A model generated the notes under the pieces. It was not told the DNA's origin. It searched no databases and was given only the letters and a program-made list of their open reading frames with translations. Made by a program: the position numbers and the translations under genes. This document shows positions 6,339 to 45,821 of a stretch of DNA of 50,024 bases, piece after piece; within the stretch, counting starts at the first letter, position 1, and each line of letters begins with the position of its first letter. The DNA comes from Vampirovibrio sp. (GTDB lineage Bacteria > Cyanobacteriota > Vampirovibrionia > Vampirovibrionales > Vampirovibrionaceae). The stretch is from assembly GCA_019634025.1 (NCBI GenBank), contig JAHQWC010000055.1, positions 1 to 50,024 on the forward strand, in the 5' to 3' direction.

Positions 6339-6365
6339 TAAAGTTTCCTGTTGAGATGTCGATAT
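6339..6365 (+). promoter_or_regulatory. Putative sigma-28 (FliA/SigD) promoter
   Basis: TAAAGTTT-N11-GTCGATAT, i.e. TAAA-N15-GTCGATAT vs consensus TAAA-N15-GCCGATA(A/T). Confidence 0.65.
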
Positions 6366-43883: not shown

Positions 43884-44004
43884 ATGTTGCGAAGCAGGGG
43901 AATCCCACTACATTCATAATCGTATACCACAGTTCATGGGTGAAAGCATGCTCGGATGTTGAAGTCACCGGGTTTGTGGACAGGACCCTTTTTATACGAA
44001 GCAC

Positions 44005-44031
44005 TAAAGGTTCTAGATTCTGTGCCGATAA
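44005..44031 (+). promoter_or_regulatory. Sigma-28 (FliA) consensus promoter
   Basis: Exact TAAA-N15-GCCGATAA, ending 80 bp before the ATG at 44112. Confidence 0.78.
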
Positions 44032-44111
44032 CTTGATTAATGGATTTTTTTCCAACTGCTGTGAGGAAGAAGCTTAATTAGGCTTTTCAATTAGACAAGC
44101 GAGACGATACG

Positions 44112-44441
44112 ATGGGTTTAGCTGCCAGCCAGGCAAGATTTTTACTGCTGACCGCCAGAAAAAGCGATTTGGAGCTTACCGGACAGCAAATTAACCAATC
44201 GCGGTTACAGATTGCCAACATTACCAACCAGTTGTTTACCGTTGCCTCTAACCTGGAGCCGGATTCGGCGGAGTCCATCCAGATTCAGCTCCGGATCAAC
44301 GCCCTGCAAAGTCTGGATCAAGGCTTGGAGCTACAACTCCGGCGGGTAGACTCTCAGCAGGAAGCGGTGCAGACCGAAATTGATGCGGTCCAAAAGGTTA
44401 TCAACAAAAACATCGATCTGACGTTTAAGACCTTCGCCTAA
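44112..44441 (+). CDS. Small coiled-coil protein of the MGLAASQAR...TFKTFA type
   Basis: 109-aa Gln/Leu-rich helical ORF with no Cys, Trp, His or Tyr; I recall these termini from Melainabacteria hypothetical proteins. Confidence 0.85.
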   Translation: MGLAASQARFLLLTARKSDLELTGQQINQSRLQIANITNQLFTVASNLEPDSAESIQIQLRINALQSLDQGLELQLRRVDSQQEAVQTEIDAVQKVINKNIDLTFKTFA

Positions 44442-44562
44442 CACGCACCTGCGTGTTCATCGAGGGGCTCTGCCCCTTCGGCAATAAGGGATCTTCTCAT
44501 TCTAATTACTATTTCTCAGCTGTTTCCTTCTTGCCTACCCCGGTTTCACCATGGCAATCAAT

Positions 44563-45003
44563 TTATGAGGCAGGCAAGAGCCTTGGCAGTTGTGACCATT
44601 CCCGATCTACCCAGGCAGCGGTGGACTGTGCCCATGACGTATGTCCGGCTTGCTGGAGAAACTCTTCTTCTTCCTCAATGAGTAAAAGCGCTCGGGTCAC
44701 TTTCACATACTCGGGGGATTCCAGCCGTTCCATGGTCACGGCCACATCCCCACAGTGGGTACAACACCGTGATGCCGGAACCACCCGACGCAAAAAATAC
44801 TGACCGTCCCGGATTTGATGACACCCACTGCACCGCAACCGCACCCAGGTCAACACCACCCCACGGCCACAATCCGGGCAAAATGCCTTGCCTTCGCATA
44901 AAGGGGTTTTAAAATGCCCGCACCCAAACAGGGGTTTTAAAACCTTTAAGGTATGGTCCAGCACCTGGGTAAACCTTTCTGTTTTGTAGACTACGTCGAA
45001 CAT
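44563..45003 (-). CDS. Zinc-ribbon hypothetical protein
   Basis: CGH, CPDC, CSGC, CTHC motifs. Confidence 0.7.
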   Translation of the reverse strand: MFDVVYKTERFTQVLDHTLKVLKPLFGCGHFKTPLCEGKAFCPDCGRGVVLTWVRLRCSGCHQIRDGQYFLRRVVPASRCCTHCGDVAVTMERLESPEYVKVTRALLLIEEEEEFLQQAGHTSWAQSTAAWVDREWSQLPRLLPAS

Positions 45004-45107: not shown

Positions 45108-45821
45108 ATGATTGTTCTCTCAGGTGTTGTTGAAAAACTCAAACGTTCCCTGCAAAACGAAATGTGCAGCGGGTGCGGCGTTGCACTAAAGCCTCCGGCG
45201 CTATATTGCCCGCCATGCACCCAACGGTTTGGCATCCGAAAACCGGAGCCGTTATGTATATTGGGAGAAAGCCCAGTGTATACGGCCTGCCAATTTAACC
45301 TGCCCCTCAAAAAATGGCTGTATCCCTATAAGTTTGAACACCAAACCCACTATAAAGGGCCTTTGGCGGATTTATGGATTCAGTATTGGCAGAGCCTCTT
45401 GGAAAAACAGCCGACCCTCATAAAGCCACCGGTGTATGTCGTGCCCATTCCACCCCGTCAGAACAATCCACACCATCGTCCCCACTTAGGCCCTTTGGCC
45501 AAAACGTTTGCTGCCATGTTCGGGTACCCTTATGTACCCCACGGTTTAGACTGGCAGCGGGAAACCGAAGCCCAACACACCTTAGCCCATAAACGGCAAC
45601 GGTGGCAAAATATGGCCGGCAGCTTGGCTACTGGGTATCCGGCAGGATTTAAACAAGATGAATTCTCGCCTACTATTTTGCTATTGGATGATATTAAGAC
45701 CACTGGCGCCACGTTGTTTGAGGCCACCCAAGCCTTTCAACGAAACCAAAGGTTCCAAGAGACAGGCGGAAAGTGTGTTGGCCTCACGCTATGTCATTTA
45801 CCCTTAGCGTTCCATAAATAA
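45108..45821 (+). CDS. comF: ComF family protein (zinc ribbon plus PRTase-like domain)
   Basis: CSGC...CPPC, YKF, VVPIP, LLDDIKTTGATL. Confidence 0.85.
   Translation: MIVLSGVVEKLKRSLQNEMCSGCGVALKPPALYCPPCTQRFGIRKPEPLCILGESPVYTACQFNLPLKKWLYPYKFEHQTHYKGPLADLWIQYWQSLLEKQPTLIKPPVYVVPIPPRQNNPHHRPHLGPLAKTFAAMFGYPYVPHGLDWQRETEAQHTLAHKRQRWQNMAGSLATGYPAGFKQDEFSPTILLLDDIKTTGATLFEATQAFQRNQRFQETGGKCVGLTLCHLPLAFHK

Follow-up and report, generated by a model that had tools for sequence, protein, structure and literature searches.

A sigma-28-type promoter before a Melainabacteria-only family of helical-hairpin proteins, candidate substrates of a second flagellar-type export system

The window, the whole stretch of 50,024 nucleotides of Vampirovibrio sp. 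DNA analysed here, contains a gene for a 109-amino acid (aa) protein beginning MGLAASQAR, which lies behind an exact match to the consensus of sigma-28 (FliA)-type promoters. As judged from sequence searches, the protein belongs to a family of helical hairpins that is real, conserved, undescribed and confined to the Melainabacteria. The proposed reading, to which a probability of about one half is given, is that sigma-28 controls these hairpins and that a flagellar-type secretion system, probably the second of two present in the genome, exports them as late substrates. The regulatory link is well supported by the conservation of the predicted promoter, and the export mechanism is plausible and unproven.

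In the proposed scheme, the window gene would be transcribed as a single-gene unit by the FliA/sigma-28 RNA polymerase, and its product would be the bare-stalk form of the two-helix family. In longer members the two terminal helices are the same, and the turn between them holds an inserted domain that is hypervariable and mostly beta-rich. Having no Sec signal, family members would serve as late-type substrates of a flagellar-type type III export apparatus. Removal of the methionine would give the conserved N-terminus starting with glycine. The chains would pass through the apparatus in unfolded form and, once beyond the cytoplasm, polymerise into an axial structure resembling a filament or needle, with the paired helices as its core and any inserted domain facing outward at the tip. 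The apparatus is most likely a second, divergent system, in which a protein termed FlhA-2 would act with its own rod proteins, FliE, FliF and FliH. This system appears to have been kept, along with FliA, by gut lineages from which flagellin, FliG, the long hook and the P-ring have disappeared, so that where the flagellum has gone the second system, FliA and an expanded hairpin family would remain.

The source assembly comprises 2.48 Mb in 161 contigs, with 48% G+C and an estimated completeness of 78.7%. Because it is fragmented and incomplete, copy numbers given for this genome (G000) are lower bounds. Contigs are denoted by C-numbers and the family-level groups of the class by f1 to f12; the genomes G153, G384 and G382 belong to f7.

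A preliminary description of this DNA had placed an exact TAAA-N15-GCCGATAA 80 bp ahead of the 109-aa open reading frame (ORF). The sequence bears this out, as the start codon lies 80 nt past the end of the motif (Table 1). The exact motif occurs once in the window against 0.01 expected, was matched in one of 100 shuffles and is counted three times in the whole genome. Sites were also scored against TAAAG-N13-15-GCCGATAA, for which the highest possible score is 13. Ahead of family genes the region scored was -200 to -20, and 11 or more was taken as the threshold. The window promoter scores 13/13, as does only one other site genome-wide; 21 sites score 12 and 307 score 11, many of the sites lying inside ORFs. 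A search for sigma-70-type promoters between 43850 and 44650 found none (0.9 expected), and the leader likewise gave no sigma-70-like promoter in the scan. The RNA of positions 44436-44500, at the end of the gene, folds with -25.3 kcal/mol (z = -3.64; none of 200 shuffles was as stable). The resulting stem-loops are terminator-like and have no U-tract, and the consensus terminator scan does not list them. Since the gene has its own sigma-28 motif, no sigma-70-type site and stem-loops after the stop codon, it looks like a single-gene transcription unit, which would be transcribed from the predicted promoter.

Conservation of the motif was assessed at 56 loci from relatives of the order, the genes being split by a protein feature into window-type (GQQINQS-like) and sister-clade (GQFINQA) forms. 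A score of at least 11 was found before 21 of the 32 window-type genes, against 1.6% of background 180-nt windows of the same loci; most sites lie 69-127 nt upstream and often read TAAAGTT. Three complete genomes of the distant group f7 were scored in the same way. Eleven of their 20 distinct family genes, most of which are 330-490 aa long, reach the threshold, four of them at 13/13 (background 1.9%), which places more than half of these genes behind sigma-28-type promoters. Across orthologues and distant family members the motif sits 61-127 nt upstream. The scored genomes are kin, so these counts do not represent independent events. As the motif is kept in two deeply separated groups, at a similar distance and at 48% versus 37% G+C, the site is best described as a predicted promoter that is conserved in part of the family, and its use is, on the motif counts, clade-specific.

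Consensus matches alone are weak evidence, given the 307 sites at 11/13, and the window site could be a chance match before an unimportant or spurious ORF. This is very improbable: the ORF has 608 near-length relatives, the best 120 of them (the window's own protein excluded) being 75-87% identical, and orthologues have the motif at a comparable distance far more often than background windows do.

The flagellin genes were scored with the same motif. None of the six in this genome reaches 11 (best 10), and none of 13 in two related genomes does so. The motif was considered as a mark of the flagellin regulon and rejected, with 0/19 flagellin-family genes at or above threshold. The hairpin genes are therefore not simply co-regulated with flagellin.

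AlphaFold2 (27 family members) predicts a single hairpin for the 109-aa protein, with helices at residues 2-46 and 53-108, a loop of residues 47-52 (NLEPDS) and a mean predicted local distance difference test (pLDDT) score of 94.2. The helical hairpin-like form that had been described is thus well founded. Scans with this protein gave no family. Pfam at E <= 10 returned only KIF9, CdaS_N and FlxA, all far below cut-offs, and NCBIfam returned sub-threshold coiled-coil noise. The best match of a PDB sequence-profile search was a designed coiled coil at E = 0.09, and the ESM Atlas search returned unnamed Melainabacteria clusters only. Foldseek against the PDB gave nothing at E <= 0.001, its list consisting of generic hairpins (the IpaB coiled coil, FadA, EsxA, HP0958, prefoldin and SMC arms). 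The Foldseek comparison that had been proposed was therefore unable to discriminate.

The best 120 relatives are nearly all exactly 109 aa long. A search of 1.84 billion cluster representatives gave 2023 clusters at E <= 0.001, and the named sources of relatives are Vampirovibrionales, Melainabacteria, Gastranaerophilales or mislabelled 'cyanobacterium' bins. These sources agree with the lineage-specific family that had been claimed. Most long hits (200-777 aa) match in two pieces, residues 1-55 of the query aligning with the N-end and 57-109 with the C-end, such that the matched pieces are the first and last 50-60 residues of the long protein. The canonical start motif is found at residues 1-3 in 346 of 384 retrieved members, and both canonical ends are kept in 166 of the 219 that are at least 190 aa long. 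The middle is hypervariable, and the inserts lie between the two helices. The preliminary description had ascribed termini of this kind, bracketing variable middles, to many Melainabacteria hypothetical proteins and had called the window protein a minimal member; both statements hold, the 109-aa form being a bare hairpin beside long members with inserts. For a 414-aa member, AlphaFold2 gives a mean pLDDT of 57.8, with helices at 2-46 and 339-413 (pLDDT 72-91) and a middle below 50.

Few inserts are recognisable. In a first batch of 15 long members a confident domain was found in five: GLUG in two (one also with an M26-N region), a trypsin-like domain, a caspase and a dockerin. A sixth showed only a weak DUF4140 match (E = 0.008), and a second batch of 73 long members gave no insert domain at E <= 1e-5. 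The dockerin, GLUG and M26-N inserts are extracellular-type domains. In composition, too, the family members are of the kind usual for axial or surface proteins that are exported. They contain hardly any Cys, Trp or His (Cys 0.03% and Trp 0.01% in 141 short members; Cys 0.31% in long members), and the middles are rich in Thr (11%), Ser, Asn, Asp and Tyr (8%).

The absence of a signal peptide, as originally claimed, is confirmed by a non-hydrophobic N-terminus in the 346 canonical members, in which the most hydrophobic 15-residue stretch of the first 30 residues has a Kyte-Doolittle mean of 0.82 on average and of at most 1.41. These members have no class III pilin-type or Sec-type leader. Under known cleavage rules, methionine removal would leave an N-terminal glycine in the canonical form. 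In three rare variants (P0126, P0171 and P0177), read by eye, a hydrophobic signal-like segment directly precedes G-[LIF]-A-A-[SN]-Q. Cleavage by signal peptidase would here yield the same N-terminal glycine outside the cytoplasm, a hint that the hairpin may work there. N-myristoylation, suggested by the MG-x-x-x-S start, was rejected as a general reading, since the carriers are for the most part gut or free-living bacteria and some variants have a signal-like segment.

The genome has the export genes that the proposal calls for. The earlier suggestion was open to the objection that fliA or flagellar export genes might be lacking; FliA is present at C118:8345-9016 (TIGR02479, 260.7 bits against a cut-off of 189.6), together with six Flagellin_N genes, FliS and two copies each of FlhA, FliP and FlhB. 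FlhA-1, located after FliP-FliQ-FliR-FlhB, clears the FlhA equivalog cut-off of 772.1 bits with a score of 861.5. FlhA-2 reaches 677.6 bits against FlhA and 584.5 against SctV and falls short of the cut-off of either model. It is the last gene of a cluster of its own, which comprises two FlgF/G-like rod genes, FlgB, FlgC, a lytic transglycosylase gene, FliE, FliF, FliH and, between the last two at the place expected for FliG, the gene of an unannotated 397-aa protein (C105:19467-20660); a 322-aa unknown follows FlhA-2.

A survey of 401 genomes of the class covered FlhA, Flagellin_N and the hairpin family. The family is present in 242 genomes, all of them FlhA-positive, and each family-level group holding it is 100% FlhA-positive. 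All genomes of f1 (24/24), f2 (19/19), f3 (5/5), f4 (2/2) and f12 (2/2) carry the family, FlhA and Flagellin_N alike, and f7 has the family and FlhA in 189/189 and Flagellin_N in 49/189. The family is found in none of the others, which for FlhA and Flagellin_N, respectively, give 29/30 and 30/30 (f6), 1/1 and 1/1 (f11), 9/9 and 0/9 (f8), 12/12 and 0/12 (f9), 1/104 and 0/104 (f5) and 0/3 and 0/3 (f10). Thus 140 of the 189 f7 genomes have the family and FlhA with no Flagellin_N match, those listed being 95-99% complete, and three complete f7 genomes gave no flagellin match even at E <= 1. The family is expanded in the complete f7 genomes, with 23-37 half-matches corresponding to about 12-19 genes per 2-Mb genome.

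FliG, FlgI, FliP and FliA were inventoried in a panel of 13 genomes: seven flagellin-less f7, three flagellin-positive f7 and three f8/f9. FliG_C and FlgI are each found in 0/7 flagellin-less against 3/3 flagellin-positive f7 genomes. FliP is present as one copy in all seven of the former and two copies in all three of the latter, and a long hook protein (446-478 aa) is found in none of the seven and in 3/3. Rod-type FlgEFG proteins and FliA above its cut-off occur in 7/7 and 3/3, with FliA 3-5 kb from the rod genes in five flagellin-less genomes. The FlhA of flagellin-less genomes is 64% identical to FlhA-2 of this genome and is taken as its orthologue, an assignment that rests on four other genomes. 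FlhA-1-type proteins (38-39% identical to FlhA-2) were found only in genomes that also have flagellin genes. In G153, FliE-FliF-x-FliH-FlhA-2 is preceded at a distance of about 5 kb by two family genes of the same strand, a long one (417 aa) and a short one (109 aa); an unannotated protein at the FliG position has 336 aa in this genome. Since Vampirovibrionales and part of f7 have the retained system, as a paralogue, next to a true flagellum, the 'partial flagellar gene set' of gut Melainabacteria reads as a second divergent export system and not just a decayed flagellum.

These patterns bear on the original form of the proposal, in which the hairpins are exported by the ordinary swimming flagellum (FlhA-1) as an accessory filament, sheath, cap or secreted protein. 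In model bacteria a sigma-28-type promoter drives late flagellar genes, and the full canonical set is present here (FlhA-1 above cut-off, FliPQR-FlhB, six Flagellin_N genes and FliS). The family is nevertheless richest where the canonical flagellum is gone, with the flagellin-less panel genomes lacking FliG, FlgI and FlhA-1. It is also missing from f6, which has flagellin throughout, and its motif precedes none of the 19 flagellin genes scored. Export by the swimming flagellum is accordingly rated as improbable. The presence of FliA, two FlhA and flagellin genes fits the flagellar type III link as first claimed; the machine to which the comparative data point is the second divergent system and not the swimming flagellum.

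The wider set of motif sites raises another alternative. The best intergenic sites in the genome lie ahead of genes of the GGDEF/EAL, GGDEF-CHASE2 and HD-GYP types, of two genes for PilB-type ATPases and of several unknowns, and there may be a wider FliA regulon of pili and cyclic di-GMP signalling. The hairpins could then be surface or secreted proteins that leave by another route (type I, type IV pilus-like or unknown), the type III link being only regulatory. Pilin-like genes near family genes on C57 and in G153, and the members with Sec-type signal-like segments, are in keeping with such a route. Canonical members, however, have no class III pilin-type or Sec-type leader, the family never occurs without FlhA in the 401 genomes, and no type I signal or transporter adjacency was seen, although no systematic search was made. 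Such a route is considerably less probable than export by the swimming flagellum.

Several observations weigh against export through the second system. The predicted hairpin is a generic fold, so that function is not identifiable from it. Six family genes were found here: the window gene (C44) and copies on C145, C40, C57, C7 and C52, of which the C145 copy is cut by a contig end and its tail is probably a fragment on C13. A sigma-28-like motif stands before the window-type copies only, C44 (13/13) and C145 (11/13), and is absent before the remaining four; in the sister clade it precedes one of 27 genes. The promoter had been expected before the paralogues, and this expectation is upheld for two of six in this genome and fails for the other four and for 26 of the 27 sister-clade genes. 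The neighbourhoods of the six copies are mostly housekeeping, with no conserved operon partner and no adjacent chaperone gene. The link between apparatus and family is not one-to-one, as f6, f8 and f9 lack the family; a search of ten f6, f8, f9 and f11 genomes at E <= 1 returned chance coiled-coil matches only. Genomes of f6 have two FlhA. Those of f8 and f9 are without flagellin and have only one FlhA, of FlhA-2-like kind; a comparison made for one f9 genome gave 46% identity to FlhA-2. The three f8/f9 panel genomes have no FliG_C, no FlgI, one FliP and rod proteins, and FliA is above cut-off in the f9 genome and not in the two of f8. The co-occurrence counts come from related genomes and represent few independent events, and the orthology of FlhA-2 has the narrow base given above. 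In the flagellin-less genomes there is no P-ring and no outer-membrane conduit was identified, a secretin search not having been made.

Some of these points are shared by a serious rival, in which the hairpins are cytoplasmic coiled-coil proteins of the FliA regulon that are never exported and act as an export chaperone or regulator, an anti-sigma-like factor or a basal-body scaffold. Cytoplasmic proteins such as HP0958, prefoldin and SMC arms are among the best structural neighbours, sigma-28 control does not extend to four of the six paralogues here by the motif scan, and the family is missing from f6, f8 and f9 despite their type III export genes. A chaperone or regulator would not, however, be expected in 12-19 copies per 2-Mb genome with hypervariable inserts of 100-700 residues. 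Dockerin and GLUG inserts and signal-like-segment variants point outside the cell, Cys, Trp and His are near absent, and conservation runs to the very terminus at either end of the chain, which is also the case in axial proteins. A cytoplasmic role is therefore regarded as unlikely, though less so than export by the swimming flagellum.

Export through the second system can be extended to a more specific scheme. The second system would be a flagellum-derived, non-rotating type III machine, without FliG, P-ring, long hook or flagellin and independent of the injectisome, with the hairpins as its needle or fibre. The bare 109-aa hairpins of the predatory Vampirovibrionales might then form a smooth needle-like contact structure, and the tip inserts of the gut lineages a variable adhesive or immune-evasive fibre, all under FliA control. 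Taken with all its parts, this scheme is speculative and about as doubtful as the cytoplasmic role.

The family resembles flagellin, FlgL and FlgK (Flagellin_N PF00669, Flagellin_C PF00700) in its paired helical ends with a hypervariable insert between them. As with flagellin, a Sec signal is missing, cysteine is very rare, a genome carries many paralogues and the promoter is of the sigma-28 type. It differs in having no Pfam match to Flagellin_N or Flagellin_C, and hhalign of the family alignment against the six flagellin-family proteins of this genome gave a probability of 0.6%, indicating no relation. Flagellin ends comprise D0 plus D1, whereas those of the family are single helices of about 45 and 55 residues; unlike flagellin, the family has a 109-aa member without an outer domain and thrives in genomes without flagellin, FliG or P-ring. 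The predicted design of the family is thus flagellin-like and its sequence is not.

Injectisome needles are built from SctF proteins (PrgI, MxiH, YscF), helix-turn-helix hairpins with some 80 residues, which polymerise on a type III basal body that does not rotate. The 109-aa protein is like the SctF needles and the EspA filament in size, fold and a proline-containing turn. The family differs in having no Pfam match to them, and the apparatus is of flagellar type (FlgB, FlgC, FlgF/G, FliE, FliF). FlhA-2, below the SctV cut-off, is closer to FlhA than to its injectisome counterpart; no secretin search was made. FadA of Fusobacterium and the EsxA/WXG100 proteins are also helical hairpins of about 100 residues, with Foldseek TM scores of 0.58-0.60 for FadA and 0.4-0.6 for EsxA/CFP-10. 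FadA is Sec-exported and WXG100 proteins need a W-x-G turn. The family has the NLEPDS loop, the near absence of Trp, a non-hydrophobic N-terminus and no Pfam match to either, so the likeness is one of generic fold only.

The window promoter matches the class 3 promoters of FliA/SigD exactly, the consensus being that of E. coli and Salmonella. It differs from them in that the motif here precedes hairpin, cyclic di-GMP and PilB-like ATPase genes and not flagellin genes. Flagellar basal bodies are kept without flagellin in Buchnera aphidicola. The partial sets of Buchnera and Gastranaerophilales are alike in retaining export and basal-body genes without the filament gene, and in both a protein exporter is suspected. 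Unlike Buchnera-type remnants, the hairpin-associated system is a paralogue found beside a full flagellum in Vampirovibrionales, and it has a candidate substrate family with sigma-28 promoters.

Coordinates within the window and of selected features elsewhere are collected in Table 1. The window gene is flanked by a radical-SAM QueE-like gene on the opposite strand and by a convergent Cys-rich gene. The Cys-rich protein recurs at eight of 29 orthologous window-type hairpin loci of related genomes and ComF at six of 29; these neighbours are read as inherited synteny. The second sigma-28-like site of the window, TAAAGTTTCCTGTTGAGATGTCGATAT, may be a chance match.

Table 1. Positions of the hairpin gene, its predicted control elements and other features.
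Feature	Position	Strand	Remark
Sigma-28 (FliA)-type promoter	44005-44031	+	Exact consensus match; -35 TAAAG 44005-44009 (TAAA 44005-44008), 15-base spacer after TAAA, -10 GCCGATAA 44024-44031
Putative 5' leader	44032-44111	+	About 70 nt if the start lies a few bases past the -10 element; from position only
109-aa helical-hairpin ORF	44112-44441	+	ATG at 44112, stop codon included; ORF, AlphaFold2
Two stable stem-loops right after the stop codon	44436-44482	+	Terminator-like, no U-tract; RNA fold
Terminator-like stem-loop followed by TTTTTATACG	43970-43988	+	Ends 17 nt before the sigma-28 promoter; gene upstream is on the opposite strand
146-aa Cys-rich protein	44563-45003	-	Multiple CxxC; convergent to the hairpin gene
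ComF-like gene	45108-45821	+	Beyond the Cys-rich gene
Second sigma-28-like site, TAAAGTTTCCTGTTGAGATGTCGATAT	6339-6365	+	Score 11/13; between TlyA-like and GcvT-like genes, about 360 nt ahead of the latter
Two flagellar-type export gates	G000 C105:14012-24661, C105:44100-49235; C108:8564-9586, C108:34881-35456		Outside the window
Near-identical hairpin paralogues	C40:3376-3705, C57:8370-8699		Two differences in 109 residues
Genes behind intergenic sites at 11-12/13	C151:1-1821, C105:2535-4776, C48:1304-4071, C89:2540-5031, C150:34473-35947		Two PilB/GspE-type ATPases, GGDEF-EAL, CHASE2-GGDEF, GAF-HD-GYP-type
272-aa and 90-aa genes	G153:C1:776843-778103	-	Between the long and the short hairpin gene; no Pfam match
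Third FlhA-like gene (example)	G153:C1:1501926-1503008		Open frame 492-498 aa

The C40 and C57 copies, both of the GQFINQA form, have unusually A+T-rich upstream regions without a sigma-28-like motif. The C57 copy is the one exception to the housekeeping surroundings, having a gene for a FliI-type ATPase at a distance of about 600 bp; a pilin-like gene is also near. The 272-aa and 90-aa genes of G153 could encode partners such as chaperones or junction proteins. The third FlhA-like gene is found in G153, G384 and G382, in flagellin-less and flagellin-positive f7 genomes alike, and matches only the cytoplasmic C-terminal domain of FlhA-2 (residues ~330-698) at 27-28% identity. Dispersed, identical-scoring long family genes were also noted: four in G242:C1 (544636, 865042, 1219754 and 1689572; 346-aa open frames) and three in G384:C1 (180660, 1694771 and 1991745; 363-aa open frames). 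Such copies may have arisen by recent duplication or gene conversion, or may be carried by a repeated element.

Flagellar genes of the lineage have been described before. Passages of Di Rienzi et al. 2013 (PMC3787301) report flagellar genes, with one gut genome lacking the full set, and a gene list for ACD20 that has two flhA entries. Soo et al. 2014 (PMC4040986), in the part of the paper concerned, report only a subset of flagellar genes in six of nine Gastranaerophilales genomes, read as motility loss. Supplements aside, the portions of Utami et al. 2018 (PMC5877343) and Soo et al. 2015 (PMC4451040) that bear on the subject say nothing on a second system or a hairpin family. In the literature on flagella, sigma-28 and type III secretion in Melainabacteria, Vampirovibrio and Gastranaerophilales, no paper describing either was found.

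For the window itself, the gene can be annotated as a putative FliA-regulon hairpin protein and minimal family member, from a group (Vampirovibrionales) that has a true flagellum and in which the bare 109-aa form is the dominant one. If the proposal is true, the cargo exported by the 'incomplete flagellar gene sets' of gut Melainabacteria would be identified as a family of at least 2023 sequence clusters with no annotation. The partial sets would then be a distinct paralogous system and a possible second, independent conversion of a flagellum to a secretion or fibre machine, which bears on the origin of injectisomes. The gut Melainabacteria are a lineage widespread in humans and animals, and their family members, being numerous, hypervariable and probably surface-exposed, would be candidates for interaction with the host and the surrounding community.

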